The notes beneath the pieces are model-generated. The model saw only the letters and a list, made by a program, of their open reading frames with translations, did not search any database and was not told the DNA's origin. Shown here in pieces: positions 1 to 50,310 of a stretch of DNA of 64,000 nucleotides. The stretch comes from Flaccisagitta enflata (lineage: Eukaryota): the NCBI GenBank assembly GCA_965153355.1, contig OZ231126.1, positions 35,278,001 through 35,342,000 on the forward strand. The letters run 5' to 3'. The translations under genes and the position numbers were made by a program. Position 1 is the stretch's first letter, and every line of letters starts with the position of its first letter.

Positions 1-1
1 A

Positions 2-1377
2 AACTCGCAACATGACAACCAGCAACATGACAACATCGTGGACGGACCTTTTTGTCCATATGACTCCCACCTTCAACTTCGCAATATCGCTAACTCTCAT
101 AACAACTCTGACCATCGTCGTCGTTCTTCTCTTCTCGGTCATGCAGCAACTCATGCAGGCCCAACAAATTCTGCGCGTTATTCTTCACTATCCGCCGTTC
201 ACCACCCAAACTCATCAATGCGCGTGCTTTATCCATCGTCTTACGCATCATCAACATTGTCATCACCACCAACGAATGAATCAAGAACCAGTTTAACAAA
301 GCGAAACAGCCTCTCAACTGCTTCGAATGAGACAATTAAACTACCTCCTTCTCAAGTGCCTCCTCCTCCTGCTCCTCCTATACTACCTCCTCTTCCACCT
401 CTTCCTCCTCCTCCTCAAAAGCCGCCTCTTCCGCCTTTTCTTCCGCCTTTTCCTCTACCGCCTTTTTCTCTACCTCTACAGCCGCCTCTACAGCCGCCTC
501 TACAGCCGCCTCTACTAACTCAACAACCTCATCTGTCACTTCAACCTCTACCTTTCCTGGCCCCCGCTCCGCTTAATCCACCACCGCAAAATCGGGGACC
601 GGCGCCGTTAATCGACTTAACAGCAGCGGGGGCTTCCAACATCGAGTCTGGGACCAACAATTTCAATTCCAAAGTTGAGTCCGGGACCAACTATTTCAAA
701 AAGAAGGTTGAAAAAAAACCTTATGATACGCAGCGGAAGGAACGGTTAAAGGAAAGGTATCGGCGTGAATGGCAAAAATTGAACAACGTTAAAAAGAAAG
801 AGCCTATGCCATTGAAAAAAAAGTCGCAGCAGGAGGCGGAAGAGCGGTACCAGGCGCTTCTTCGAGATCAGAAATCTCATCAAGAACTTGAACAGGCTGC
901 AGCCTTCGCCATTCAAACAGACACGTTGGGCTTTACAGTGAACGTTGACATCGCTGCCAATCAAACTTTTGAGCTCCTTGCGGAGCTCGAAAGTATCGCG
1001 GAAATCTTCGACGACGCAAAAGACTACATACTAAGGCAAAAGAAACCAATCGCAAAAGAACAATGGATAGATGAAGAAGTACAGCAAGAGAATCTCCATG
1101 TTCTAGCCGACGATTTCGAGGATGCTGAATACCTCACCGAATCTGCAATTCCGTATTTACAACGACGCTACAACATTTCCGAAAGGTGTCTACGAAGATG
1201 GATCCAAAAGAAGCGGAACCGATTTTGCAACGAAAAGAAAATTTTCCTCGAAGAAAAAAACATTCGGCCCATTTATCAAAGGGTCGAATGCATCCTACTG
1301 TCGGTTTTCGAAAGATTCTCTCCAAGGCCACGTCCGCTTGAGATCGCGTGTATACAGCGTCACCTTACACTGAACAG
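2..1377 (+). CDS. Exon of a large Pro-rich protein with tandem divergent homeodomain-like repeats (5' end outside the window)
   Basis: Frame is open from nt 2. It contains ENLHVLADDFEDAEYLTESAIPYLQRRYNISERCLRRWIQKKRNR (homeodomain-like, helix-3 W) and the first part of a second repeat, and ends at a donor AG|GTAATT (1377/1378). Confidence 0.7.
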
Positions 1378-1681
1378 GTAATTCTTGTCGAAACCGTATT
1401 TGAGCTGCTGTTTACAGATTAATTTCTGTCAATCCTTGTCAAACATTGGCAATCATCTTTGTCAATCAATCAATAAAACAATCAGTCAATCAGTCAATCA
1501 TTTTCAATCAGTCAATCATTTTCAATCAATCACTTTCAATCAGTCAAGCGGTCAATCAATAAATCAATCAATCAATCAATCAGTCGATCAATCAATCAGT
1601 CGATCAGTCAAACATTTTGAATGACATCATTTTTGAATAACATCATTTTCAATTATCCCTCTTTTTTTTTATTGAAACAAG

Positions 1682-4600
1682 GCTGTACGTGGACAGCTGG
1701 TTCAGGGACCAACGGCAGCGTTGCCTGAGATGGATGCCTTACACGGGCCCTTCTCTTCTCCTGGCGTATGACAGGATTCTCACGCTGTGGCACCGTCAAT
1801 ACCCGTATCCGACGCCACAGCAAACTAGAGACATCGCAAAGAAAATTCAACACTCAATCGCCAGCGTGGAGAAATGGCGCGACCATAAGATAAGGTCGAC
1901 GCGCAGGGTAGGCGTGCCTCGGGAAATATTTCTTTCCACCCGATATTTATCTCCAGAGAGCGAGCGCCAGGAGCCCAATCAATCAACTAATCGATTCATT
2001 CTTCCCAACAACGTGACAAGCACCAGACCGGGAGAAAGAGAAATTGCGCCAAAACGATCAAACGAGACTCTGGAGTCTACCCCGAAGCGTCTGAAAGCAG
2101 CTACCCGCTCGTCATCAAAATGTCTGGAAACCATCATCCCCAGCTGCCATCATTCCCAGCTGCCATCATCCAACAGCCAACATCAGTCTCCATTCAAATC
2201 CCCGAGACAACAGATTCCAGACTCGTCAATCGAAATAATCCAGGAGGAAATAACTGTGAGGGATCTCTACGGCCTGAATGCCAACAACGTCAACAGCAAC
2301 AACGTCAACATCGAAAACGAAACCACGACATCAAAATCGTCGTTGTCGAACCCACAAAAGGGGAGCGACGACAATGTCGACGACAACAACGACGACGACG
2401 AGAACATGGAAAATCCTGCAGGAAACGCAGATTCGTCGAATTTGAATCATTGGACATCCGACATAGAGGCGGAGGAAGCGCCGGAGCCGCTGGTTTCAAC
2501 CACGACGACGATGGAGACGACGACGACGACGATGACGACGACGACGATGACAGCTACCTCGTTAACATCGACGACGACAACGACGACAATGATGACGACA
2601 ACGACGACGACGACGATGGCGACAACAGTTGCATCAACGACGAAAAACGACGATTTTACACCACCGCAGAATACTGTAAACGAGACCAACAAAATCTGTT
2701 CGTACTCTGGATCGTCCTCGTCGTCCTTGACCTATTCTCAATCGTTTTCTGCGTGTTCCTCTCGCTCGCACGTAAACCCAACAACAGCGAATAACGAACA
2801 ATCTAACAAAGCGAACAACAACCATCTCGTTGACACATCTTCGTTGCCACACGACCAAACAACCGCCACCACAGCCTCAACAACAACAGCGGCAACAGCA
2901 ACAACAGCAACTTTTACAAGCAACAGCAACTTCAACAGCTTCAACAGCTTCAACAGCAACTTCTACAAGCAACAGCAACTTCAACAGCTTCAACAGCTTC
3001 AACAGCAACTTCTACAAGCAACTTCGGCGATGGGATGCAACACAAGCCTCGTCGCCGATCCACCAGCGATAACACCCGACTCCTCTTCATCCCCCCTTTG
3101 CCCTCCACCGCCTTCTCTTTCTCCCGCCGCGTCCTCTCTTCACCTTCAACCGCCTCATCTTCAATCGCCTCATCTTCAACCGCCTCATCTTTCTCCCGTT
3201 TCCGAACTGCCTTCGTCTCCCGTTCCAATAGATTTAAGCGCTGGTACAACAACCCCAAGAAACCTCTATTTTCTTCGCGCTCCGTCTCCGACTCGGGAAT
3301 GCCCAACCTCACCACCGGTTTCAGTGGAAGCGGAAGTGGATGTCGGGACCCGATATTTATCTCCAGGATATTTATCTCCAGCAAGCGAGAGGGGGAAATG
3401 GGACGATCCCAAAGTCAAAGCCCACAATTCCGACATACTATGCTTATCAGCCAGCGCCAAAGAGGATTTAAATTCAATTATTAATTTGGCTCGTTTCCAT
3501 GCTCCTTCTGGATGGGTGGAAACGGTCGAAACTATTGCCCGGAGGACCTGCGGCACAGTGGACGAACTTGAAAAAAGGATACGGAAGGGCCCAGACGCGA
3601 CATCTATCCCCTTAGGCTCTCCGCTCATTGACGTCTGTGGAGAGGCGAGTGTCATTGATGAACCAATGACACCGGATAATCTTGTTTTCGCGCCAAACCT
3701 CTCGCCAAGAGAATCCGCTCCCGTTTCACCGATGATTGACAATCCCGCTTACGCGCCAGCCAATAACGCCGCCTCTTCTCACCCACGTCATCCTCTTCAT
3801 CCTCCTCCTCTTCCACCAAAAACAAACACTTACACATCTCCTCCTCCTCATCCTCCTCCCCCTCCTCCTCTTCCTCTGGCTCCTCCGCTACCCGACGATC
3901 GTCATCAACTTCCTCCTCCTCCTCATCCTCTTCTTCCTCTTCCCCCACTACCTTCCTCCTCATTGGAATCTCATTACGCGATACCCAACAACCCTCCTTC
4001 ATTTACCCCTCCTCCTCCTCAACGTCCTTCCTCCACTCAGCAGCCTTTACTGCGCCTTCCTCCACCACGTCCTTCCTCTACAATTCAATCTTCGTCACAG
4101 GTGTCCTTTCCTCCTTGTCCTTCTCCTTATCCCTCACACCTCATCCCTAGACACACGCCCCCTTATTCTCTTCCTATCCCCACAGCTCCTCCTATCTCTT
4201 CTCTTATCCATTCTACTCCTCCTACCGCAGGACATCTGTTGCACGCTCCTCCTATCCCTTTTTCTTTCCCCTCTGGTCCTTCCCTTATACAATACCCCAC
4301 CGACTTGACTACATCCCATCTCTCTCTTTCCGCGTCTTCTTCATCCTCTTCATCTTCACCGTCTCCTCCTCCTCCTCCTCCTCCTACCAATTTCTCCTTT
4401 GCGACTACAAACGCGATTCCGCCTAATCCGTATGCATCATATCCTTATATTTCAAGGACGACAACCTCTACAACCGCCTCGGTAACAATCTCGATAACGG
4501 CCTCCTCAACAACAGCCTCAACATCAGCATCTTATCCTTTTCCATCAACCGAGAATTCATACTCGGCTCTATTTCCGTATTACTATAATCTCCTTTACCC

Positions 4601-4700
4601 AACGCTTCCATCCATACTCGGCCGATGCCGACCAATCAAGCGCCCACAACGCCAACATCGACATTCCTGCCGCAACCGCAGCCACCACGTCGAAGGATAA
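1682..4700 (+). CDS. Next exon of the same gene: completes repeat 2, encodes repeat 3 and long Thr/Ser/Gln/Pro-rich regions
   Basis: Acceptor after a T-tract (AACAAG|G, 1681/1682). The phase-2 splice gives ...HLTLNR-LYVDSWFRDQRQR in the frame of ORF 1689-4700. Repeat 3 reads WHRQYPYPTPQQTRDIAKKIQHSIASVEKWRDHK. PIDLS lies at 3225-3239. Reading frame beyond about 4590 is ambiguous. Confidence 0.65.
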
Positions 4701-5137
4701 ATTGGGACTGGGAGAGAGTGAAAGAACAGCAAGCGGCGGCGTCGACACCAACACCAACATCTCTTCCGCAACCGCAGCCGCAACCACGGCAACTGCAATA
4801 GCAATTGCAACAACAAATACAACCGACGCCAATGACGCCAAAACCAACGCCTCCACCGAAGCCGCAGCAGCGACCAGGGCATGACTTGCAGGACCCGCAT
4901 CAACAGCAACAGCAGCAACAGCAGCAACTGCAGCAACTCCAGCAAATCGGGTAATTTCATTCTTTTCTCTCTTTACACACCTTGACTAACAGACTGACGG
5001 GGCAACAAAATCTTTTTTTCTTTGTCTCGCTTGTCTCGCTTGTCCCATTCTTTTCTCGCTTGTTCCATCTGTCCCACTCGTCTCATTTGTCTCACTTATC
5101 CACCATCTCTTTCGCTTATTTATCATTTTTTCTTCAG

Positions 5138-6179
5138 ATCATCGATATGCCCTGATCAGCAGCAAACTTCATCATTCACTGCAACAGCAGCAGCGCCAAC
5201 AGCAGCAATAACATCAGCCGCTTCCCGCTCATCGCATACATTTGCGTATCCATATACGTCTACACCGTCGTTGACGCCGGCGGAATCATCGCCGATTTCC
5301 TCATTAACGAATTTATCTCTTTCCGACCGGCACGGCGCCCACCTTGCCACTTTCATGAGTGACAACGAGATAACGCTTTCTTCGACAATCGACCACAGCG
5401 CCGGATTTCCGGCGGTCTACATGGACTTTGTAAAGCAAAAAGAACATGAAAAAATGAAGGAAAAAGAAGACCAAATACTTTTTGAAAAGAAAAAAAAAGA
5501 AGACGAAAAATTGAAGGAAGAAAAAGCCCAAATGCGTTTTGAACAAAAAATGCTTCGGTACAAAGAAAAGAGAAAAAAAGAGAAAGAGGAAAAAAGAGAA
5601 AATAAGCATCTACTGCAACAACATAAACAATGCGCGGATGCTTTCGCGCTGCTTGAGCAGCTGCGTCCGCTTTCGACGGATAATTTAACGCCCCCACAAC
5701 AACAAGAACAACAACAACAACAACAAGAACAACAACAAGAACAACAACAAGAACAACAACAAGAACAACAACAAGAACAAGAACAAGAACAACAACAAGA
5801 ACAAGAACAAGAACAAGAACAACAACAACAACAACAAGAGCGTCAACCGCAATCGAATCCACAACGCCGAGAGGAGATCCAAATCTATCTTCAGCAACAA
5901 CAGCAACAACAGCAACTACAGCAACAGCAACCACAATCCAACGAAAGTTCCCACGATGCACCCGCTGCGATATTACGACCCATACCGCTGCATCCGCTGC
6001 ATGCAAGAACACTGGCGCCAGCGCCGAGAATCGGATGTCATCGCATGCCTCCCGTGGTGACTTCGAGCGCCTCCGCCGCTTCGTGCGCCTCCGCCGCTAC
6101 CCTCAAACGCGCCTCTTCAAATGTGTGTCCATTTGTTTGCGTTTCACCGCCCCCACCGGAAGAGGATAAAACTGGTTAG
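5138..6179 (+). CDS. Probable terminal exon encoding a Lys/Glu coiled coil and a Gln/Glu-rich tract
   Basis: Donor GG|GTAATT at 4950/4951 and pyrimidine-rich acceptor TTCTTCAG| at 5137 are phase-compatible with ORF 5022-6179. Joining it to the upstream exon needs a frameshift and crosses a TAG at 4799. Confidence 0.4.
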
Positions 6180-6382: not shown

Positions 6383-9009
6383 GCAATTTCTTTTTTTTCT
6401 TAACAGTACCATTGTACGTAGTGTGTAAAAAAAAACACTCTCTAGGGGGCCCTTATAAGGCCCCGTAGATCTTTGAATGCTAATATAAAATGTAATAGTA
6501 CTTGATTTTTACATAAATGGTATCATTGGTGCTATTCAAAAGTAGTGTTACGTTGTATTTTGTAACTACCTAGTACGTAGTAGTACGTAGTATTATGTAA
6601 TTACCTTGTATTACGTTGTACTATAAATTGTATACATAAATGATATCATTCGTTATGTACAGAAGTAGTACTAACAATTATCATTAAGGTTGTGATTACC
6701 CTATATATGAAAGATGGACAATATTAACTACTCAACTATTACTACTACTACTCTTCTTTCAAAACTGACATTGACAGCAGTGTTGGTTGGCTTTTTGTCA
6801 TTAACCAAATGTCTTTATGCTACTTTTACATACGCAGTTCAATGGTACATGAGTCAAAAAGATCTTTTTTTCTTATGTGATAACCATGGTTATGTTTGAT
6901 GCAATATAAAAAAAAGGACAAAACGGGTTAGAGTTACAAATAAATCGCGGTGAAAGAATGATCAACAAGTGGTCATCAGGTTACAGTCTCGCATATTTAG
7001 AGGTGAAGGAATGGCGAAAGAATGATTTACTGGTAGATTCTTATAGATTCGTGCATATCATTTGAATATCTCAAGAGGAAACGCTTTAATAGATTTTGAC
7101 GAGAGCTTGGATTACATGTTAAAGCTTTTGTAATTCGGCTTGACTGCTTATCGTTAGAATGTTTTAAGAAAAAACACTTTTGTAGATTTTGACGAGAGCT
7201 TGGCTTACGTCTGTAAGCCGGCTTGACTGGTTCTTATAGATTCCCGCGTACCACAGCTTTTTTCATTAAACGTCTCAAGAGGAAACGCTTTCTATAGATT
7301 TTGACAAGAGCTTGGCTTATGTCTGTGGAATATCGCACTTAATTTTACTAATTTTGTGATTATTTGTATCTGCATATTTCTTTGATTCGCCCTGTTTGTT
7401 GCCCATTTTGTGGATTTATATTATTGCTGATTTTTCTTTCTTTAGATCAGTGATAATGTCATTCGCTCTTCATCCATGATCAATCTTGGGGTGCGTTTCC
7501 TTACCTGGTGAGTTGTGGTTGGACTCGGTTGGTTGGTTAGTTGGTCGGCTTGGTTGGTTGGTCAGTTGGTCGGTTGGTGATGTCTAGTTATTTAGTTATT
7601 TAGTTTTTGAGTACGTGAGTTATTGAGTTATTCAGATTGATAGGTTGTTAGGCTAACCCTTTTCTTCTCTTCTCCCCTCTCCCTTTTCCTATCTATTTCA
7701 GCGTTTTTATACCCCTTTCAACCATAGAAGATATTATTGATGGCGACGACGAAAGACTCAGTTCGCATGGATGCGCAATGACTTTCTTTGGGCTTCGTTG
7801 GAGTTGACGTGGTTGGCGTGGCGCGTGGCGTAGCATCGAGAGGATTGGCGCGGTCGTGACGCGGCGACCGACGGACCGATTCATCGTCATCGACGTTAGC
7901 GCATAGGTACTTTGACGGTTGGAGACAGTGTTTTACGCGGTTCTTTACAGTATAAAAACGGTACCAGAGATTGATCAAGATTTGTGTTTTATACCACCAC
8001 AATGAGCACAAAAAATACACAGGCCCCGGGTGGCGACGGAGAGCCGCCGGTGTGGAGGCTGCAATGTCGAGCGTAAGGCAGGTGGCACCTGGAGTCGCTG
8101 TGGGTCAATGGCGTTCAGCGTCGCTCCAGTCCCGGTAAAAGAAGGGCCGTGTTGATAAGAAGGCGAGCGATCGGCGAACAAATTCAAAGCTTCTAAAAGC
8201 GAGAAAATAGAACAATACAACGCGTGTGTGATAGACGATGTATCTGGCCGAGCATGGCGGCAAATGATTTGATGGTGGACATATCTGACATCACCGTGCC
8301 AGACGGAGCACCCTAAAGCCGTTAACATATAGGAAAGAGAAAGGCGAAAGGAAAGTGTCTTCGGCAGTTCTCCAATGTGAAAAGAAGCACAAGCTGGCGC
8401 GCTTGCGGTCGAACAGGGCAACGCCATGAGAATGCGGCATAATGGACAAAACAACGCATATCAGAAGCGAGGGCGCCAAGGTGAGGGAGGAGGGCACCAT
8501 CGAGGGGCTCCAAGCGGGAGGAGGAAGGGGAGCGGAGGCTGGAGCGGCGGGAAATAGCCGGCGCCGAGGCACCGAAGCCGCGCCGGCGAAATCAGGTCGT
8601 GAAATGGCGACAAGGCGGCGCCAGCGAGCAGGATAGCGGGAATGTTCAGAGGATGCGTCATAGCGCCTCAACAGGCGAATGCGGCTTGAAGCGGTATAGC
8701 GGCGGAAGCAGCGTCCACGTATTACCAGCAGCGCCGGCTGAGAAGGAATTGCCAAATCAGCCAAAGAAAGCGCCCGGATGATCGTGAGATCGATACAAGC
8801 GAAAGAACAGATGAGGAACAGAAAAGAAGAACGTATGGAAAGCGAACAGAAGAAGCAGAGTGAAATGGATGAGGCGGAAAGCATTGAGAAGTGGAGAATG
8901 AAGACAGAAGAACAAAAGCAAAACTCCACCAAATCAAAATAAAGGAATCGAAACGGATACATAGAACAACAACAAGCGGTGCGGCAGCGGTGAGCCGGGC
9001 GCCAAGTGC

Positions 9010-10596
9010 GTGAGGAGGCTCGAGCAGTCCGTCAACGGGGGCGAAGAGAGAGCTTTGAATCCCAACGCCGCGGTAGAGAGCTGGGCAAAAAACAATGCCA
9101 GCGGCTCTGTTCCGACGACGCCCGTGAGAGGAAAAGTGCCACTACAAAGGAAAGGAGAAAAGAAAGTGGCATTAAAACTCGACCTCGACAAAATTCAACT
9201 GACGCCAAAAGGAATCACTAAACCTATGGTTCCTCCAGCGAAGGCGGTTAAGAAGCCAATCGTTCCGTCGGTGAGACCCAAAAAGGTGAACAAACCAACG
9301 ATACAAAAACTACCACCAAGGGAAACAAAACAAGAAAAAGAAAAAGGAGACGCGAAAAACTTGAGAGAGAAAAAGGAAAGGATAGAGAAAGAAACGATGG
9401 AGCTCATGGCGAGGCTTCAAGAGTTGCACAATTCGGCGCAGCAGGTGGAGGAAGGGTTGGAAAGGGAGAAGGAGGAGGAAGAGGAGGAGGAGGAAGAAGA
9501 AGCGCCAAAAACACCAACCACACCGAGTTGCGCTGGAAGTGCAAATCAAGAAGAGTTTGTGCGAGTCCAAATTCAGATGTTTGCGATGGCCCAGCTAAAA
9601 GAAGCTCGCCCGGTGAAGAAATTTGCGGGAGTAGGCAAAGGAATGAGTTTTGCCAAGCATATGCTGAAGTTTGAAACTGCTTTGGAGATAGTCAGTCTGT
9701 CGGACAAAGCCAAATTAAACGAATTTCAGCATTACTTCGAGGGCGCAGCGTTCCAACTGATCGAGGCTGAAACATTGGAAAAAACAGACGCAGGAAAGGC
9801 GGTGAGAGCGGCAATTGAGAAGCTGAACAAAAAATTCGGCCTGCGAAAAGAATCGGCGATGGAAATGCTCGAGGAGTTGTTGCAAGGAAAACAAGTCGGT
9901 GAAAAGGACCATGGCGGCTTATTGATGTTTTACTATAAATTGCAGAGCATCTACACATTAGCAAAAAGCACCGGCAGAGGAGGAGAATTCGAGAATAAGA
10001 TGATCGTCGAGTCAATCCTCTCAAAAAAGACCCCCCACCTGACAGCGAAATGGTCAAAGAGAGTGGTGAAGAACATGATGTCAGATGGGGAGACGCTGGG
10101 CTTTGAGACGTTTCTCGAATTCCTTGACACCGAGCATACAATTGCTGAATTGTGCTACAGAAACTCGAGTCAGGCGCAGAATAGCAAGCCTGTAGGGGCG
10201 GCCAAAGTGGCGGCGACAACGGCAACAGCGCCGACAAAAAGCGGCGGCAAACCGACGGCAAACGCGACAGCGCCCAATACAGCGGCTGCAGCACCGACGG
10301 CCGGAAGCTGTGAACGTTGCGGAGGCCAGCATCGCATTCCAGCGTGCGACATTTTCAAAGGCCTGTCCAGCGCGGATAGGAGAAAATTTTGCATAAACAC
10401 TCGCATATGTTATTTGTGCCTTGAGACCGGACATATGGCGAGAAACTGCAAATCGACGGAAATGTGCGCCATCTGCGGCATAGGTCACCACACCTTGCTC
10501 CACCCAGACGAATCCTCAGGTGCCCCGCCTACCCCGGCGGGAGCCAATGGGGGAGGAGGAGGGGGAGGAGGAGGAGGAGGAGGCGGAAACGCATGA
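9010..10596 (+). CDS. gag: BEL/Pao Gag (true start uncertain)
   Basis: Three C-terminal Cys/His knuckles CERCGGQHRIPAC, CYLCLETGHMARNC and CAICGIGHHTLLH, typical of BEL/Pao. Confidence 0.88.
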   Translation: MRRLEQSVNGGEERALNPNAAVESWAKNNASGSVPTTPVRGKVPLQRKGEKKVALKLDLDKIQLTPKGITKPMVPPAKAVKKPIVPSVRPKKVNKPTIQKLPPRETKQEKEKGDAKNLREKKERIEKETMELMARLQELHNSAQQVEEGLEREKEEEEEEEEEEAPKTPTTPSCAGSANQEEFVRVQIQMFAMAQLKEARPVKKFAGVGKGMSFAKHMLKFETALEIVSLSDKAKLNEFQHYFEGAAFQLIEAETLEKTDAGKAVRAAIEKLNKKFGLRKESAMEMLEELLQGKQVGEKDHGGLLMFYYKLQSIYTLAKSTGRGGEFENKMIVESILSKKTPHLTAKWSKRVVKNMMSDGETLGFETFLEFLDTEHTIAELCYRNSSQAQNSKPVGAAKVAATTATAPTKSGGKPTANATAPNTAAAAPTAGSCERCGGQHRIPACDIFKGLSSADRRKFCINTRICYLCLETGHMARNCKSTEMCAICGIGHHTLLHPDESSGAPPTPAGANGGGGGGGGGGGGGNA

Positions 10597-10600
10597 CTAG
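10594..10600 (+). promoter_or_regulatory. Putative programmed stop-codon readthrough signal UGA-CUAG between gag and pol
   Basis: GCA TGA CTA GCC. The gag (9010) and pol (10669) ORFs share a frame and the 24 intervening codons are open. Confidence 0.65.
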
Positions 10601-12942
10601 CCGTACCTAAACAGAACTCAGTCTTTAAAGTCGGAGGAGATGATGGAGCATGGCGTCTGATTGTACCGTTGTATGTAGTGGGGGAAAATGGGGAAGAGAT
10701 TGGCACTTATGCCCTTCTCGATGGTGGTGCGAACCGGAATGTGGTGTCGGAGTCGATATGTTCGCGTTTGGGAATAGGAGGAAGAAATGTGAACATGAAA
10801 GTGACGACCTTGGACAAAACTGTGGAAGGCGTCAGAAAAGTAGCAGATGTGATGGTGAAGGGGACAAATGGTTTTGAACTGAAACTGAGCAACGCGATTT
10901 TTGGAGAAATAATAGCCACAGAGGGTGACAGACCCCCCCGAATTGCGGATGTGGAGGGGATTGAACACCTAAGCGACATCGAGTTTCCCGCTTTTCCGGA
11001 AGAAAATGACGCCGACAACCAAATAGGAGTGATTATCGGGGCTGAACACGCCCGAGTATGGAGCTCTGGCGAAAGGCGCATTGGCGATGAATCACTTCCG
11101 GTGGCGTTGGAGACGGGATTCGGCTATTGTCTGATAGGCCCCAAGAAAAACATTGACTCGCATTGTTTTGTTTGTAACCATGTTTCCTTTCAGAGTTATC
11201 CATCCAACACAGAGAAAGAGATGAAAAAATGTTTTGCGAGTGAATTCGAAAGAGCAAAAAACGACGAAGAAACAATGTCGGTGGAGGATAAATTTGCTCT
11301 TAGGCAACTCGAAGAATCGATTGTATGGGACTCTACAGTGGAAAGATATCGAGTGAGCCTACCCCACAAACGCGGAAGAAAAGCGACGGCAGAGAGGATA
11401 AACAAAGTGGATTCAAGCGGTATGGCGTTGGACCGCTTGTGGAGAACGGCACGACAAATGCGAAAGGACCCGGAGAGGAGAAGGGTCACATTTGAAACAA
11501 TGCGTCAATTCGAAGCGAAGGGCAGGGTCGTGAAACTTGATCCGAAAAAGCATGCAGCAACGCCATCGGACAGGCCAAAGTGGACAATCCCCATCCATGT
11601 CACAGATAAGCCAGGGAAACCTGGTCAAGTTCGTATCTGTCATGATTGTAGGGCATCTGTGGGGGGTGTATGTTTGAATGATTGTCTGTTAGATGGCCCC
11701 CAATTGGCATGTGACATTCGTGGCGTGTTGATGCGGTTTCGTGATGGGGGTGAAGTTGCGGTAGGGGCTGACATTAAAGATTTTTTCCATGAAATCTATA
11801 TTGCAGAGGAAGACGAAGGCGCCTTTACGTACTGGTGGTTTCCGACGGAGGAGATGGACGAAGCGGAATTGAATGGATTTTTGGGTCACGTGTTCGGCGC
11901 CAAAAGTTCCAACTTCGTCGCGATCTTCACGCAACGGTACCACATCAATCAGAGGGCGAGAGAATACGGTCCTCAAGTAGTGGAGGCGTCAAACCGCAAT
12001 CTGTATGTCGACGACCTATTGAAGTCTCTGCGCAATACGAAAATAGCGCGTGATTTCCGGATCGCGATTACTGCGGCGATGAAGGATGGCGGCTTCACTC
12101 TCTGCAAGTGGCGCTCGTCAAAACCGGAAGTGTTGGAGGAGGCTGATCCGACGCCGGAAATAAAGGACTTTCGAAATGCCGCAGCCCCCGGAGAGGATGT
12201 GGGGAAAGTTTTGGGAATGCGTTATTCGTTCTCCGCGGACAAGTTTTCATATGCCCCAGAGAAAGAAAAAGCGGAAATGAAAGTGGAAACGAAACGCCAG
12301 ATGCTACAAGTGATAGCGTCATTTTTCGACCCCCTCGGATTCTTGGACCCTTTCGTGATTTGGGCGAGATTCATTCTGCAACAAGTGATGAAGACTGCGA
12401 TCGGATGGGACGAGAAAAACATAGAGGAAGCGTTGCTGGAATCATTTGCGGTGTGGCAAGGAGACTTTGAATTTCTCAAAAAATTTGAAATTGAACGATG
12501 GACTGCGACGTTGGAAACTCAGGACGGTGAAAAACAATTGATGGTGTTCAGCGATGCGAGTAGCAAAGGATACGGCGTAGTGATATACGTGCGCCGGAAG
12601 ACGCCGGACGGGAAGATTCACGTCGCGATCGTATGCTCAAAGGCGCACGTGGTGCCGGTGAAAGACGCTGAGGCTGGGCACCACGATTCGATGCCGAGGC
12701 TGGAGTTGCAGGCCGCGCGATTGGCAGCAAGGATGAGATCGTCCGTAGAAAAAGAAACAGGGAGTTATGACAGTATCATTATGTGGACTGACTCTGAGTG
12801 TGTAATTAAGCAACTTAATGATACGGTCACCCGATTTAAAGTTTACTTTTCCAACCGCATCTCAGAAATACAGGCGTTGACGAGCGTGTCCGAGTGGAGA
12901 TGGGTGCCTTCGGGGGATAACCCGGCCGACGACTGCACCTAA
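10597..12942 (+). CDS. pol: BEL/Pao Pol: aspartic protease, reverse transcriptase and RNase H; truncated before integrase
   Basis: YALLDGGA (PR); GADIKDFF, VFGAKSS, LYVDDLL (RT); VFSDAS, PRLELQAA, WTDSE, NPADD (RNase H). Confidence 0.92.
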   Translation, partial: LAVPKQNSVFKVGGDDGAWRLIVPLYVVGENGEEIGTYALLDGGANRNVVSESICSRLGIGGRNVNMKVTTLDKTVEGVRKVADVMVKGTNGFELKLSNAIFGEIIATEGDRPPRIADVEGIEHLSDIEFPAFPEENDADNQIGVIIGAEHARVWSSGERRIGDESLPVALETGFGYCLIGPKKNIDSHCFVCNHVSFQSYPSNTEKEMKKCFASEFERAKNDEETMSVEDKFALRQLEESIVWDSTVERYRVSLPHKRGRKATAERINKVDSSGMALDRLWRTARQMRKDPERRRVTFETMRQFEAKGRVVKLDPKKHAATPSDRPKWTIPIHVTDKPGKPGQVRICHDCRASVGGVCLNDCLLDGPQLACDIRGVLMRFRDGGEVAVGADIKDFFHEIYIAEEDEGAFTYWWFPTEEMDEAELNGFLGHVFGAKSSNFVAIFTQRYHINQRAREYGPQVVEASNRNLYVDDLLKSLRNTKIARDFRIAITAAMKDGGFTLCKWRSSKPEVLEEADPTPEIKDFRNAAAPGEDVGKVLGMRYSFSADKFSYAPEKEKAEMKVETKRQMLQVIASFFDPLGFLDPFVIWARFILQQVMKTAIGWDEKNIEEALLESFAVWQGDFEFLKKFEIERWTATLETQDGEKQLMVFSDASSKGYGVVIYVRRKTPDGKIHVAIVCSKAHVVPVKDAEAGHHDSMPRLELQAARLAARMRSSVEKETGSYDSIIMWTDSECVIKQLNDTVTRFKVYFSNRISEIQALTSVSEWRWVPSGDNPADDCT

Positions 12943-14936
12943 TTCAAACACCTGAAGTACTAGGGGGGTTGAACGAGCAGTCATTTATTTTGGATGGTAT
13001 ACTCTACCGTACTTTTAAAACTATCCTACCCGTCGACCCTCAAGAGCTTTCAGTGCATTCTCGCTCGATTTCGTTTTATATATTGGATAAGGTTGCACTG
13101 CTTAATCCACATAGGTAACCGAATTTGACTTTCTTCAATAACCGCAAAAAAAACCAGTAACCCTTTTTTTTTTAGTAACCGATAACCCTCACACAAATTT
13201 TTTTCTAATCTATTATCTACAGGATTTATCTCTCGCTAACGGTGCAATACCAAAAAGAAGGAGATGCTGCAATAACAGCTGATGATAATATCACAGTGTC
13301 ATGCCCAATTATGTCCCATGGTTTGATTGACGATGTTTCTGTAAGTGAAAAATTTATCCTGGAAAAAATGTCTTTTTTGTTTATCTGGTCCATTTCATTT
13401 ATAATCATCATTTTTTTTTCCAAAGGTAACGATAGGCGAATCCACACTTGACCGCCAGTCACAGTATTTTGCGTTAATCACGTATCTTGAGATGCTTTTT
13501 GAAAGGACCCAAAAAGAAAAAGACAGCTACCTTCAATTTTTTGAAGGTTTGTTAAAAAAATACTGTAAACGATAAAACATTTCAGTTGCGGACACGCGAC
13601 TCTATAAAAGGCTTTGCCCGTCCGTCCGCCCGTCGGTCCGTTGGTCCCTTGCGGACACACCCCTACCCATGCAGAAAACGCCCTTAGCCGTCCGTCAACA
13701 ACTGGTGGCCATTTGTTTGTTTATTTGTCTGTTTAGGGTTTGAAGAAGACGAAGCAGAAAAGTATACAACGCCAGCACTGGCATTAATCGCCAAAACTGT
13801 GGACGGGGTAACAACCCACACAGGAAAGAATGGCAGGGGAAGGAGAACTTTAAAAATTCTTAAAAAACAAAAACAGGAATTTTTCATGTCCTTAAAAAGC
13901 GCATTCTTAAACTTCAACAGTTTATTACCATCGAATCTTGAAGTTGGAATTCGTATATATCTAACATCGCCTGAGAAGTATTTTACAACCACATCTGCGG
14001 CCAGTAAACCAACATTTAAGATTTTGGATGCTAAACTACTTGTTGAGTTCATTTTGTTAAAACCAGTTCTCCTTCAAGCCATGGAAAGTCGTTTGGCTAA
14101 ATCTTTCCTGCAAATTGACTTCCTAGCCAAATTTGTCAAGTCATTTAGGTACTCATGTGTGTCTTTTCCAATTTTTGTCTTTTAGCCAGCCAAGAGTACG
14201 ACTGGTATTGACATGTTTTTTTTTATCTTTTGTCTTTTTGTCTCTTGTCTTTTTTGTCTTATGTACCAGCATTGAGACTGGAATATTGGAGAAATCGTTT
14301 AACATTTCGACACGAGATCCGATATCAAACATCATAGTCTTTCTTTCTCCAAATACGGTAATAACTCTGTTATACATTGAGTTACGTTATCGACTGCTAT
14401 CGACATGGATTACATTAAATAACAATTTAACATTTTATTTTCAGACACACGTTGGTAGATACCAGGAAGATTTTTATCGGTTCCAAAGAAATGGTCTTGT
14501 TCATACTTACGTCTCAAGTGGAGTTTCCGCCGTTAAAATACCCAGCTTAGCTTATAGCAATAATGGGGGTCAACTGGAGGGTTATGATTTCTCGACAGAC
14601 GCTGGTAAAAAAGCTTCATATTTTTACGTACTGCAACAATTCGGCAAACTTAATGAAGAAGGTTCGGCCAGCTTGCCTTACAGTCTTTGGTTGGAGGACA
14701 AATTTTTGTTGCCTTTTTGTTTAAGCGCTAATAACAATGTTGGGGGGGCTAATGCAGGACTTATGAACAAAACACAACCACGGTCTATTTCACCAAGTAA
14801 TGATTTCAGTATCTACTGTAAGTTTGAAAATCCTGTTCAAAAAGTTTTGAGGCTCACGGTCGTTTATTCTCAATTGAGGTCTTTAGCTATTGAGCATGAT
14901 AGAACGACATTTAAAGGCTATGAAGCTGAACAATAA
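12939..14936 (+). CDS. Maverick/Polinton-type double-jelly-roll major capsid protein, 6 exons (12939-13114, 13223-13340, 13426-13546, 13737-14148, 14270-14357, 14445-14936); start codon missing at the BEL junction
   Basis: Five GT-AG introns with matching phases (2,0,1,2,0) give an open frame of about 468 aa. Its motifs are colinear with the Polinton capsid: IYLSLTVQ..HGLIDDVSVTIG..YFALITYLEMLF..LNFNSLLPSNLEVGIRIYL..FKILDAKLLV..VKSFSIETG..DFYRFQ..LLPFCLS..CKFENPVQKVLRLTVVYSQLRSLAIEHDRT. Confidence 0.85.
13581..13665 (+). repeat. Host HINE-like repeat fragment inside capsid intron 3
   Basis: AGTTGCGGACACGCGACTCTATAAAAGGCTTTG followed by GTCC-type repeats matches host copies at about 36815 and, in reverse, about 38280-38320. 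Confidence 0.8.
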
Positions 14937-14938
14937 AT

Positions 14939-15493
14939 ATGGCATTATTCACATCTGATGTACTCATTACCAGCGATTCAGATTTAATCCATTATTTGAG
15001 CAAGTTTAAAAGAGCCTATAACGCTATTGGAAAAGGAAGATTTGTAGTGAATTATGATAAGTTACCTCAACTGTCAAGAGTGTGTAAAAAACAAAAGTCG
15101 TTTGCCGTGATTATTAATACTATGCATAGTTCGGAAACTAGCACTGGCAAAGTTGGTCACTGGACTGTCCTTCTTATAGAGAGAATAACTGGTAAAACTG
15201 GTAGATGTATATACGTTGATGGATTATTATCAAACTATCGTTCAAATCAAGACTTGAAAAAGGGAATTGATAATTTTTGTAAATATAACGACTTATACCT
15301 TGATGTCTGGAATGTGAAGACGCAAAGAATTAACTCAAACTATTGTGGCTTTGAAATTGTTTATTTTGTGTGGTATTTTGCACATCATGGTTTGAAAGGT
15401 GTATATAAATTAAAAACATTACTAAAAAAATACAGCCTTTTTGGAATTGAAAACTATATTCTTAAAAGAGCTTACAAATTGTGCACGGTTTAA
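14939..15493 (+). CDS. Adenain-like cysteine maturation protease (Maverick/Polinton PRO)
   Basis: 184 aa with VIINT...GHWTVL...YVDGL...KTQ...NYCG, the H-D-Q-C catalytic order of adenovirus/Polinton proteases. ATG follows 2 nt after the capsid stop. Confidence 0.85.
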   Translation: MALFTSDVLITSDSDLIHYLSKFKRAYNAIGKGRFVVNYDKLPQLSRVCKKQKSFAVIINTMHSSETSTGKVGHWTVLLIERITGKTGRCIYVDGLLSNYRSNQDLKKGIDNFCKYNDLYLDVWNVKTQRINSNYCGFEIVYFVWYFAHHGLKGVYKLKTLLKKYSLFGIENYILKRAYKLCTV

Positions 15494-15529
15494 TTTCCTG
15501 TGCGTCATTGTGCTTTGTTTTTTCAGATA

Positions 15530-15745
15530 ATGGATGTTGATGAGAACATCCCATCTGTTTTTCTCAACATACGCACCACAATAACATCTAATACAAAGTA
15601 TTTAAAAGTACTTTTGATTATCATTGTGCTTGGGCTACTTGTGACGGACTTCTCCTTTGATAGACTTACTTCTTGCATGTTGAGAAATAACAATACTAAC
15701 GCCTTCATGGTCAACAACGAGACAAAAACACCCAATGTACTATGA
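15530..15745 (+). CDS. Small single-pass membrane protein (71 aa), unknown function
   Basis: Hydrophobic KVLLIIIVLGLLVTDF followed by NNT and NET sequons; preceded by TTTTTTCAG|ATA ATG. Confidence 0.5.
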   Translation: MDVDENIPSVFLNIRTTITSNTKYLKVLLIIIVLGLLVTDFSFDRLTSCMLRNNNTNAFMVNNETKTPNVL

Positions 15746-15881
15746 TAATTCTCTTCAGCTTCGTGCTTTAAACAGGTACTAAAAGATAAGTGGTCCTTTA
15801 AATAAATTTTTTGGACGGGCCACTAACAGATGTTTTTTTAAATTCATTAAAATAACAAGGGATCTTCTGAAAAACGAGAAA

Positions 15882-16010
15882 ATGGGACGGAAAAGAAGAA
15901 GAGGTCGAAGACGAAGAAAAGGGAGAAGACGTCGGCAACGAAAGCGGGGAGGAAAATACGTTAAAAGATTTCAAGCTAAAACAACAAAAACTCGTAAACG
16001 ACGGCGCTAA
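15882..16010 (+). CDS. 42-aa Arg/Lys-rich protamine-like peptide (candidate virion core protein)
   Basis: MGRKRRRGRRRRKGRRRRQRKRGGKYVKRFQAKTTKTRKRRR*, 27 of 42 residues R/K; AAAATGG start context; AATAAA signals downstream. Confidence 0.5.
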   Translation: MGRKRRRGRRRRKGRRRRQRKRGGKYVKRFQAKTTKTRKRRR

Positions 16011-16542
16011 ACTATGTTTTTTTATCCAGTTTATGTTGATTATAGCTATATACGGCTGTAATTATGTCTATGTAAATAAAAGAGCAGTTGCGAATAACAG
16101 TTGTAAATGATAATAATTGTAACCATTGTAAATAACAAAGAATTACTACCTAAATAAATAACATAAAAATGAATAACCTTTTTTTTCAGTCTATATAACG
16201 CCACTTTTTATGTATTTATTATCTAGCTATATCATGCATGGCAATGACAGACAAAATAGGAAATGATTTGAAAATTGAAACATTCTGAGCCCACAAAATT
16301 GTATAAACAATATCGAGGCAAAATGAATTCAGCGGTGGATAATTTTTCCGCCCCAAATGCCGCAGGCGGCTTTGAAATAATTAAAAAAATATAAAAAAAA
16401 ACCGAGGGTGTTCAGCGTACCATATCATACTACTTCCATCCATCCGTCCGCCCCCCCCAGGCCCTCTCAGGCCTGAAATCTGACCTCTCAGGCCTAAAAT
16501 GTGCCCTCTCAGGCCTGAAATCTGCCCTCTCAGGCCTTGAAT

Positions 16543-47720: not shown

Positions 47721-48309
47721 TTTTGATAAAAAGATGAAATAAGGAGTCAGGTCAGTTCAGTCATTTTTGTCCTGCACGCGACTTATAGGTGTTGGCCTTG
47801 TTCATTTTCAATGCAATCTTAGAATTTAAACCGGCCCCTGTCAATAACCAAATATAAAATTTTCTGTAATTTGCAAAATATTTTCTTTATCAACTTTACC
47901 AATATTTGTTTCTATTTCATGATTTAATGCAAATTTTGCAATGAAATAATAACTGTGACATATTTTAATAATTATTTTGGTATCATCATTCAGTTTTATT
48001 TATTTTTAATTTTTGATTTTAGCACCCGTTGAAACGCAAATGTTGCCTTTGGAAGTACGCCGTCATACAGTGGTAATCCAATGTAACGGTCTTGACAGGA
48101 CTGGGAAATTTTGATTGTTAAATGATTTAACTTAAATCTGAATGTTGTTAAATCGAATTATCAAGTTTTCTCATTTTTTTGAATATGCAAACATATGTGC
48201 TCAATGAATTGCAGTTGTTGAGCATGTGTGCATCTGACAGAGTAAAAGATTAACAGATAGAGCCTTTGATAAGCCAACTTTAAGAAAAGATTATCATCAG
48301 AACGAAACA

Positions 48310-50310
48310 TTGAAATCGCCGTCGCTTAGTTGGAGCAAAGTTTCCGACCACCATCGCAAATGCTACCAGGACAAACTGGATTCACTGTGCGCGCAAGGGG
48401 CTCACCAGAGTCCTGTCTGTCTCCAAGCGCACTGTGACAGCTCGTCGTGTCATTACCGTTTGCAGTGTGAATACAATGAAATAATTGCAGTGATTAAGGA
48501 GGCAGATGAAACGATTCCACGCAGAAATCCAGCAATTGAGAAAGATTGGTGGAATGAAACATTGTCTACTCTCAAATGGCAATCCATTGAAATTCATCAA
48601 TTGTGGAAGAGCCAGGGCCGACCAGGACAAGGTCCCATTCACTTGGAGCGCATGCGTGTGCGCGCTGACTATAGGCGGGCATTAAAAGCAGCTCAACTAG
48701 CACCAAAGCAAGCGATGTGGGATAAGATCCACACCTCGATGGAATCAAACGATACCCACCAGTTTTGGAATTCATGGAAGCAACTGTATGCAAAAAACAA
48801 AAGTCATTTTGCTCCCATGGTAGATGGAAAAACTGCCAAGTCTGATATTGCAGATGTTTTTAAAAATTGTTTCCAGAGCAATTCGGAGCCTAACAATGCA
48901 GAGAAGATGGAAGAGCTCAAGGCTCAGTTTGTGGTGCAATATGCCAATTACAGTCAATGTCACATGGAATCTTGTGATTGCAACAATTACTCCATCTCCG
49001 TTGAAGACGTGTTTGAGGCCATCAGCAGCATGAAGACGGGAAAATGTGCAGATGAGATGGGAGTTAATGCTGAGCATTTTCTGTATGCGCCTTTTTCTCT
49101 TCTCAAGCGACTCGCCACTCTCTTCAATCAAATGTTGAGACATGGATTCGTGCCCTCGCAATTTCGGTATGGCTTTATGCTCCCAATAGTCAAAGATAAC
49201 CAAGGTAATCATGGTGATAGTTCTAACTATCGGGGTATTACGATTTCCCCAATTGCCTCAAAAGTATTTGAGCATGTGCTTAAAAACAAGTTTTCTGACC
49301 ATCTCAAAACATCGCACTACCAATTTGGCTTCAAAAAGCGCAATTCAACAGTCCATGCGCTGCACTGCTTCCGTCAAACCGTTGAATACTATGTCAACAA
49401 TGGCAGCAAAGTTTATGCATCGTGTTTGGACGCTAGCAAAGCATTCGATCGGTTGGTGCATGCAGGGCTCTTCTCAAAGCTAATACAGCGCATAACACCG
49501 ATTTGTTTCATCAACATTCTAATGACGTGGCATGATGGACTGTGGTGCCGCGTTAAGTGGGACGACCACTTCAGCGAATGGTTTCCAATCATGGCTGGTG
49601 TCAGGCAAGGAGGAGTTCTGAGTCCTGATCTCTACAGCATCTATGTGGATGATCTCATTCATCTTCTTAAATCAAGTGGCATCGGATGTCACTTAAATTG
49701 GGCATTTGCAGCAGCTCTGTTTTACGCAGATGACATGGTCGTCATGTCTCCGTCATTGAAGGGGCTTCAACGACTTCTGAATCTCTGTAACGACTACTGC
49801 ATCCAGTGGGATATACGTCTTAACGCGAAAAAAACAAAAAACTTGTTCTTCGGATGTAAAACGGCACCCACCCATAGTCTTAAGCTTAATGACGCTGATA
49901 TCAAATGGGAAGCAAAGTGGAAATATCTCGGCATCAATCTGAAGTCGGGACTCAACTTTGACTGCTGCATTCAAGAAACCATCGCCAAATACTACCGAGC
50001 CCTCAATGCCATTCTGCGCGTCGAAGGTCGCTCAAACGACATTATCATGCTACAACTCCTCGAGGCGCACTGCATCCCCATACTCACATATGGAATCGAA
50101 GTCCTCCATGTCAGAGACAGAGATGAAAGGAGAAAACTCAGAGTCGCGTATAATGCAGCATATCGAAAGATCTTTGCTTACTCATACCGCGAAAGTGTCA
50201 CCGAACTTCAACACTGCTTGAATCGACAGACATGGGAAGAGCTGACCGAAAAAAGACAGTCAGTGTTCCGAGCTCGCCTCTACAGTGCCCATCCTGACTC
50301 TCTCGCTTGA
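48310..50310 (+). mobile_element. 5'-truncated non-LTR retrotransposon (LINE) ORF2, reverse transcriptase
   Basis: YRGITIS, QFGFKK, LDASKAFD, GVRQGGVLSP, FYADDM, KYLGI; 666 open codons; no endonuclease domain visible. Confidence 0.92.

Follow-up and report, generated by a model that had tools for sequence, protein, structure and literature searches.

The stretch of DNA considered here (the window) is 64,000 nucleotides long and comes from Flaccisagitta enflata (GenBank assembly GCA_965153355.1, contig OZ231126.1, positions 35,278,001 to 35,342,000; G000:C1:35278001-35342000 in our numbering). At its left end lies a gene for a long protein, rich in Pro, Ser, Thr and Gln, that is predicted to contain three homeodomain-like units in tandem, and this gene lies inside an element of the Maverick/Polinton family. 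We regard it as a real gene. It represents homeodomain cargo in a Maverick, in a slot that zinc fingers fill in sister elements. Coordinates given without a contig are window positions, and genome searches covered 794 Mb in 9 contigs.

Gene structure and the surrounding element

Two open reading frames (ORFs), one ending at 1381 and the other spanning 1641-4700, fuse in frame once a 304-nucleotide GT-AG intron (1378-1681) is removed. The donor at 1377/1378 reads CAG/GTAATT, the acceptor at 1681/1682 consists of a polypyrimidine tract followed by AAG/G, and the intron is in phase 2. There are 286 open GT-AG pairs (from 15 donors and 24 acceptors), and each was scored against P0006, a homologous protein described below. 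The pair 1378/1681 ranked first with a score of 369, compared with 345 for the runner-up, and gave a gap-free junction. Splicing of intron 1 is strongly predicted on these grounds. Raw reads of run X4 matched the gene only at its simple repeats; they also missed the homeobox of a Hox locus and so bear neither way on expression. An earlier note, made from the letters of the DNA alone, had claimed that joining 1377 to 1682 gives three units of about 60 amino acids, each with a helix-3 Trp followed by basic residues. Both claims stood: the frame is kept across the pair that scores best against P0006, and Trp48 codons followed by basic residues lie at 1199, 1698 and 1875.

The ATG of this copy of the gene (copy A) is found at G000:C1:35277972, just 5′ of the window. 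A second copy (copy B) lies inverted ∼36 kb upstream, within a 12.7-kb block that is 89-97% identical to the copy A region. The predicted exons and introns, the units and other features of the window are collected in Table 1. No zinc finger, CUT or POU domain was found in the window protein, and a scan of it for LxCxE returned no motif. Two short candidate motifs resemble known co-regulator docking sequences. In shuffled sequences PxDLS arises in 120 of 2000 cases (24 of 2000 for a stricter pattern), and the LIDLT-type motif is equally frequent in 5 of 2000 block shuffles. Note that both patterns were picked after the motifs had been seen.

Table 1. Features of the window, in order of position
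Feature	Position	Strand	Remarks
Exon 1, copy A	1..1377	+	Pro-rich N-terminal part, conserved helical stretch, unit 1, helices 1-2 of unit 2
LIDLT	608..622	+	Candidate motif; resembles the EVIDLT UBC9-binding motif of adenovirus E1A
Stretch before the homeodomains	827..1057	+	Common to P0006; possibly helical or coiled-coil
Unit 1	1058..1237	+	W48 I49 Q50 K51 R53
Unit 2	1250..1736	+	W48 F49 R50 D51 R53; intron splits codon 42 (turn before helix 3)
Predicted intron 1	1378..1681	+	GT..AG, phase 2
Predicted exon 2	1682..4950	+	End of unit 2, unit 3, long Ser/Thr/Pro-rich low-complexity tail
Unit 3	1734..1913	+	W48 R49 D50 H51; Trp19 and YPYP loop as in TALE/SINE homeodomains
PIDLS	3225..3239	+	Candidate motif; fits the PxDLS CtBP-binding motif; in both copies
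Predicted intron 2	4951..5137	+	GT..AG, phase 2
Predicted exon 3	5138..6179	+	Lys/Glu-rich and Gln-rich stretches
Truncated BEL/Pao retrotransposon interrupting the element	8965..12942	+	Peptidase_A17 E 2.2e-36, zf-CCHC E 0.001
Inverted second left arm	12939..16434	+	Putative capsid-like exons, protease gene 14930-15493, AGTAGT terminus at 16434

Exon 2 also contains, at 2915-3022, a 49-nucleotide unit that is present twice together with a partial copy, and the copy number decides the reading frame. Within 1991-2794, an overlapping +1 frame of 267 Asp-rich codons is open in both copies and is probably a by-product of triplet repeats.

The gene is placed between an ATPase-like gene and a conserved block formed by orf168, orf1005 and PolB. 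The region upstream of copy A is free of assembly gaps and comprises the ATPase-like gene, several further ORFs, an integrase-like gene, capsid-like ORFs, the gene for a protease and an AGTAGT terminus. The region downstream of copy B is likewise gap-free and comprises the 168-aa ORF, the 1005-aa ORF, a split PolB gene and another AGTAGT terminus. Copy A is contiguous with the left terminus in this way, and copy B with the right one. An AGTAGT start is typical of Polintons. The three AGTAGT termini at the locus are alike over ∼32-50 bp and have the orientations expected of terminal inverted repeats. When examined for target-site duplications they were found to carry three different flanks, and there has therefore been more than one insertion, or a rearrangement. 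The element of copy A is cut after ∼7324, and the truncated BEL/Pao retrotransposon and the inverted left arm follow in that order.

The PolB product is a protein-primed type B polymerase by its Atlas score of 0.95 to PF03175 clusters (29 of 30 matches); sequence searches of the PolB ORF against Pfam, PHROGs and PDB gave no match. The protease has His77, Gln132 and Cys139 invariant in 10 of 10 aligned rows, and its profile matches clan CE proteases at E 0.033. Adenain is absent among these matches, and our assignment of the protease as adenain-type presumes that adenain is a clan CE member. Labels for the integrase, ATPase and capsid genes are weaker. The integrase-like gene matches rve at E 0.02 with 15.6 bits (cut-off 32.6), D-D-E-like residues are visible in it, and homologues occur in relatives. 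The ATPase-like gene has a Walker-A-like GK[ST] motif (GKT) at its N-terminus, as do relatives, and no family match. The conserved ORFs between integrase and protease likewise have no family match and are called capsid-like from their position. The capsid-like and ATPase-like genes, and the PolB genes of several relatives, also look intron-interrupted.

Genome-wide, there are 59 protease-like and 94 PolB-like matches. The same gene order, with the homeodomain gene absent, is found in single stretches at C5:66.1 Mb, C9:63.8 Mb and C1:62.6 Mb. Several short ORFs that look spliced, and one ORF rich in Gln, occupy the interval from PolB to the element's right terminus (G000:C1:35221242-35228700). 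One related Maverick (G000:C3:27.748 Mb; L057:3282-3995) carries an IAP gene (BIR E 7.7e-17, RING E 4.5e-9) a few kilobases from its protease gene, and similar ORFs are present in L055 and L061.

Homeodomain-like units, their homologue and selection

Against a profile made from 24 canonical host homeodomains, all three units scored higher than each of 500 shuffles. A second profile gave one shuffle in 500 that reached the score of unit 1, and none in 500 that reached unit 2 or unit 3. Counting the units of P0006 as well, six of six outscored their shuffles in the correct register. Comparison with Pfam, a check proposed in the earlier note, gave a divided result: unit 1 reached 18.8 bits for Homeodomain, below the cut-off of 22.9, and unit 3 reached 25.3 bits for Homeobox_KN when scanned alone (cut-off 24), 16.9 bits in the whole ORF and 22.9 bits in a six-frame search. 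A weak HTH_28 match was also among the Pfam results for window pieces. Profile matching in register (L16, F/Y20, W48, R53) places the units in the homeodomain superfamily, marginally so for units 1 and 2. Structure prediction, likewise proposed earlier, leaned that way for unit 1, the model of which has three helices, and disagreed for the exon-2 piece, the model of which is not homeodomain-like (see below). All 41 Foldseek matches listed for unit 1 are homeodomains, though none is significant, and its best PDB match is ZHX1, a weak one (E 0.033).

A protein search with the exon-1 piece, made among 1.84 billion representatives, returned 4 matches, one of which (P0005) is this very gene. P0006 (ENA; 349 aa, on a contig of 2050 bp) is uninterrupted and has the same three units in the same order, with identities of 35% (exon-1 part) and 42% (exon-2 part). 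For both Homeodomain (37.7 bits, from two stretches) and Homeobox_KN it is above the Pfam cut-off, and all 8 of its PDB matches are homeodomain proteins. Its unit 3 reads W-W-I-N-A, like the WFINA of TALE proteins, has Ile50-Asn51 and matches PKNOX1 at E 5.8e-4. A search for further homologues of P0006 returned P0006 alone, and one limited to proteins of 30-46 aa was empty. No loci related to P0006 were found in viral_contigs or metagenome_contigs, and viral_contigs queried with the element protease gave no match. P0007 and P0008 were dropped as homologues, one as an unrelated repeat protein, the other as an HTH repeat of bacterial type. The three-unit region had an Atlas score of 0.79, which we take as a lead only.

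Scores between the units are 20-45, those of the best host homeodomain matches are 64-65 and those between the units and their P0006 counterparts are 116-156. Because the units are dissimilar to one another and close to their counterparts, the arrangement is old, and we rejected a recent internal triplication. The earlier description of three tandem divergent repeats is accordingly right in that three divergent units stand in tandem, and goes too far in calling them repeats. In a quick tree (95 rows, 62 columns) the only partner of each unit is its own P0006 counterpart, and deeper branches are unsupported. The protein had been described as an unusual multi-homeodomain protein fitting no class; this is supported, the tree having placed the units in no class, and the Maverick setting, the inverted copy and the broken state of the copies had been missed.

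Trp48 residues are spaced 65 and 59 residues apart in the window protein. Unit 2 has a loop 1 that is one residue longer, and unit 3 is without the three-residue TALE insertion: P0006 unit 3, which is equal in length to window unit 3, leaves a gap of 3 when aligned with PKNOX1 and Meis. Asn occupies position 51 in 24 of 24 canonical host homeodomains. In units 1-3 the residue there is Lys, Asp and His in the window protein and Arg, Glu and Asn in P0006. The claim that every unit lacks the canonical Asn51 was borne out for the window and does not extend to a rule for the family, since P0006 unit 3 keeps this residue. Units 1 and 2 keep Arg53 in both proteins, and helix 3 is still basic.

Over 178 homeodomain codons, copies A and B show 8 synonymous and 2 non-synonymous differences (ratio 0.07, p = 1.3e-4). 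The homeodomain units are under purifying selection between the two copies. In intron 1 there are 14 differences over 286 sites as well as length changes other than multiples of three, and both splice sites are intact. In exon 2 (2227-4362), 10 of 10 length changes between the copies are multiples of three, several of them inside triplet repeats. No significant signal of selection was obtained for exon 3. Eight environmental exon-1 sequences are unchanged in the part belonging to unit 2 and include both A-type and B-type residues; the differences between A and B in unit 1 are therefore not assembly errors. Copy A is broken by a frameshift near 4620, its reading stopping at 4698-4700, with a further stop near 4800, and copy B is broken in the stretch matching ∼550-670. 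The full protein is probably no longer made by either copy.

Copies A and B may be alleles or separate insertions: the three termini differ in their flanks, but inverted near-copies 25-120 kb apart are frequent among host homeobox genes, and 4 of 4 pairs checked are 72-99% identical and without N gaps. Examples are at G000:C2:24.09-24.12 Mb, C1:20.95-20.98 Mb, C4:89.29-89.32 Mb and C3:31.17-31.21 Mb. Such pairs, with arms of several kilobases, represent either genuine fold-back duplications or a habit of the assembly.

The slot ahead of orf168 and the role of the gene

Copy B of the gene is on the PolB strand and ends ∼1.9 kb before orf168. Stretches near PolB were inspected in 14 relatives (of the 94 matches). 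In 7 of these, belonging to two families, an ORF with C2H2 motifs stands on the same strand ∼2 kb ahead of orf168; the other 7 have short ORFs or no ORF there, or do not cover the slot. Typically, the C2H2 ORFs have 2-4 motifs (one full motif in the broken copy at C1:43.46 Mb), are long and of low complexity, reaching 1000-2000 codons, and in four cases are Gln-rich. Long ORFs of this kind are found at L084:7571 onward and in L123-L132, one of them with an AT-hook-like RGRPRGRP. No homeodomain was found in the 14 stretches near PolB or in 10 stretches downstream of proteases (of the 59 matches), the best partial scores being at most 10.9 bits. The sensitivity of these searches is low, because the window units themselves score 8-15 bits with the canonical profile.

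We favour, with somewhat better than even confidence, the reading that the gene encodes an early transcription regulator of the element, in which three packed domains would bind an extended site and the tail would recruit host co-regulators. The domains, the selection on them and the position of the gene are shown by the data; binding, timing and partners we infer as follows. The host spliceosome would join the three exons. The three closely spaced domains might then read an extended site cooperatively, offsetting the missing Asn51, and the Pro/Ser/Thr/Gln-rich tail could recruit host co-regulators, for which the CtBP-type PIDLS and the E1A-like LIDLT are candidates. Such recruitment would switch element genes on or off and perhaps dampen host genes. 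The position ahead of orf168 would be a “regulator slot”, given over to C2H2 zinc fingers in sister elements. Precedents are a putative mimivirus homeobox gene described as immediate-early (PMC11998528) and the E1A-like “Oncoid” genes described upstream of PolB in adintoviruses (PMC8502044). A wider proposal we make only tentatively, giving it rather less than an even chance: animal Mavericks may keep, before their polymerase block, an early-regulator slot with interchangeable DNA-binding modules of host type, and one old lineage may have filled it with a triple homeodomain having a non-Asn51 code and E1A-like recruitment of CtBP and SUMO.

Several observations weigh against a regulator of this kind. 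DNA binding is not assured, because Asn51 is gone in all three window units, Phe49 and Arg53 are gone in unit 3 as well, and Tyr replaces Trp48 in P0006 unit 1. None of the Foldseek matches of unit 1 reached E <= 0.001, and homeodomains had a VIA Z of at most 6.0 with its model, ranking below three unrelated chains. In the single-sequence model of the exon-2 piece, helices 2 and 3 are fused, and this model matched helical bundles and no homeodomains. The tail is not conserved: P0006 stops ∼20 residues past unit 3, and dN/dS in the tail, ∼0.5, is not significant. LIDLT falls within the disturbed stretch of copy B. The environmental proteins P0001-P0003 lose the frame at the 49-nucleotide repeat and end before PIDLS; they read as though one unit shorter, which may reflect either the collapse of short reads or a genuine allele. 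The C2H2 scores of the slot ORFs are below the Pfam thresholds, and the homeodomain gene is confined in this genome to one element family.

Some of the same observations would suit a decoy carried by the element, that is, folds that no longer bind DNA and offer HOPX-like interaction surfaces, by which host homeodomain partners or co-repressors are occupied. Each of the three window units is degenerate at positions 49-53. HOPX is reported to keep the fold, with a one-residue insertion between helices 1 and 2 like that of unit 2, and not to bind DNA (PMC9179269), and E1A is reported to compete for CtBP via PxDLS (PMC5930299). However, helix 3 is still basic, the first two units of the window protein and of P0006 retain Arg53, unit 3 of P0006 has Ile50-Asn51, and the slot of sister elements holds C2H2 fingers, which are of a DNA-binding type. 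We judge a decoy unlikely. The gene might instead be passive cargo, a fast-evolving host multi-homeobox gene captured together with its intron, the selection then reflecting a host role or a short time since capture. Its presence in only one element family would agree with this, as would the intron-bearing, host-derived cargo reported for nematode Mavericks (bioRxiv 10.1101/2022.07.12.499685). The host also has a large array of divergent homeodomains, described below, whose residues at position 51 are of the same kinds, and a profile of that array fits best, giving 14.4 bits for unit 2 (9.7-10.8 with other profiles) and 24.3 bits for unit 3 (8.3-23.0). Yet genome searches, in which only the best candidates were scored, returned no host parent gene outside the element, selection was detected between the two element copies themselves, and the internal position coincides with the slot of regulator-like ORFs in relatives. 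Capture as passive cargo is, in our view, also unlikely. Least credible, to the point that we give it very little weight, is that these are generic HTH or helical segments resembling homeodomains by chance or convergence. The sub-threshold Pfam score of unit 1, the HTH_28 match, the lack of a significant Foldseek match for unit 1 and the model of the exon-2 piece could be read in this way, but six of six units outscore their shuffles in register, and P0006 exceeds both Pfam cut-offs and finds only homeodomain proteins in the PDB (8 of 8).

Host homeobox genes and known systems

The host array spans 35 kb (G000:C1:95183530-95218400; L043-L047) and has at least 56 homeobox exons on one strand, most of which open with an FGIR-like motif. 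The best upstream AG acceptor is in the same phase for 50 of 56 exons, and a stop follows 8-19 codons past Trp48 in 54 of 56. Position 51 is Asn in 22 of the 56 and another residue in 34. The exons look like alternative last exons of one gene rather than parts of one multi-homeodomain protein, an organisation that we presume to be of the lola/mod(mdg4) style. Candidate shared exons lie upstream at ∼95177800-95180300, one of them without a Pfam match. Elsewhere in the genome, Six-type homeobox exons at G000:C8:55521074-55570615 come after many tandem partial copies of helices 1-2 spaced by 114-120 bp, and four divergent TALE-like homeoboxes stand on one strand within 6 kb at G000:C7:6033338-6039316. 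The Hox gene L024 combines a central-class LTRRRRI with Tyr20, and L028 we take from its appearance to be a posterior-class Hox gene. The medpost type, to which L024 corresponds, is reported only from chaetognaths and rotifers, the latter being without posterior Hox genes (10.1101/2025.01.31.635887); taken together, the two genes point to an arrow worm as the likely host. In the window itself, a non-LTR reverse transcriptase ORF of 690 aa lies on the minus strand at 48238-50310 (RVT_1 E 8.6e-32).

Homeodomain proteins are classic regulators of animal development, and here one has been kept under selection inside an integrating, virus-like element. This suggests that such elements can bring sequence-specific regulators of their own, or decoys of those of the host, into germ-line genomes. 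If the wider proposal made above is true, an integrating animal DNA virus encodes a homeobox transcription factor. Little is known of how Maverick expression is controlled, and the slot holding zinc fingers or homeodomains is a testable candidate for an early switch. Note also that surveys of “orphan” homeobox genes in invertebrates may count genes belonging to elements.

In the Maverick, Polinton and adintovirus literature, subscription journals lying outside the scope of the search, we found no paper joining Mavericks and homeodomains; the “homeodomain” mentions in PMC2836005 proved to be PHD fingers. The closest parallel in organisation is with nematode Mavericks, in which wasp proteases and krma kinases are reported as intron-bearing cargo (bioRxiv 10.1101/2022.07.12.499685). 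In both cases a host-like, intron-containing gene lies in a Maverick with PolB, protease, integrase and ATPase genes, the last two being integrase-like and ATPase-like here. They differ in that the cargo here is a homeodomain protein, and “homeo” does not occur in the main text of that report. Adintovirus “Oncoid” genes and adenovirus E1A are similar in being low-complexity, regulator-like genes upstream of PolB with PxDLS- or EVIDLT-like motifs (PMC8502044, PMC5930299), whereas in the window protein, which has homeodomain-type modules and is far longer, no LxCxE or paired CXXC module was found. Adintoviruses are also reported to carry IAP and Bcl2 genes (PMC8502044). The main text of PMC8502044 does not contain “homeo”; its supplementary genome maps, which lie outside that scope, could bear on novelty.

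Acanthamoeba polyphaga mimivirus has a putative homeobox protein and so provides another homeodomain gene in a double-stranded DNA virus (PMC11998528), but it is a giant lytic virus of amoebae, not an integrating animal Maverick, and the likeness is by description only. With TALE and SINE proteins (PKNOX1, Meis, Pbx, Six) unit 3 shares Trp19 and the PYP loop, and P0006 unit 3 has a WFINA-like sequence; in contrast, no TALE insertion and no SIX domain were seen, and the signature is missing from units 1 and 2. Animal genes with several homeoboxes are rare but known, and those reported include Zhx/Homez, Zfhx, Hdx and dve/Compass, as well as amphioxus Muxa/Muxb, mammalian Dux and spiralian TALE-IV (PMC6118893). 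The window protein resembles them in having several homeodomains per protein, with a weak match of unit 1 to ZHX1, and differs in that its three units are dissimilar, stand 59-65 residues apart and are carried by a mobile element.

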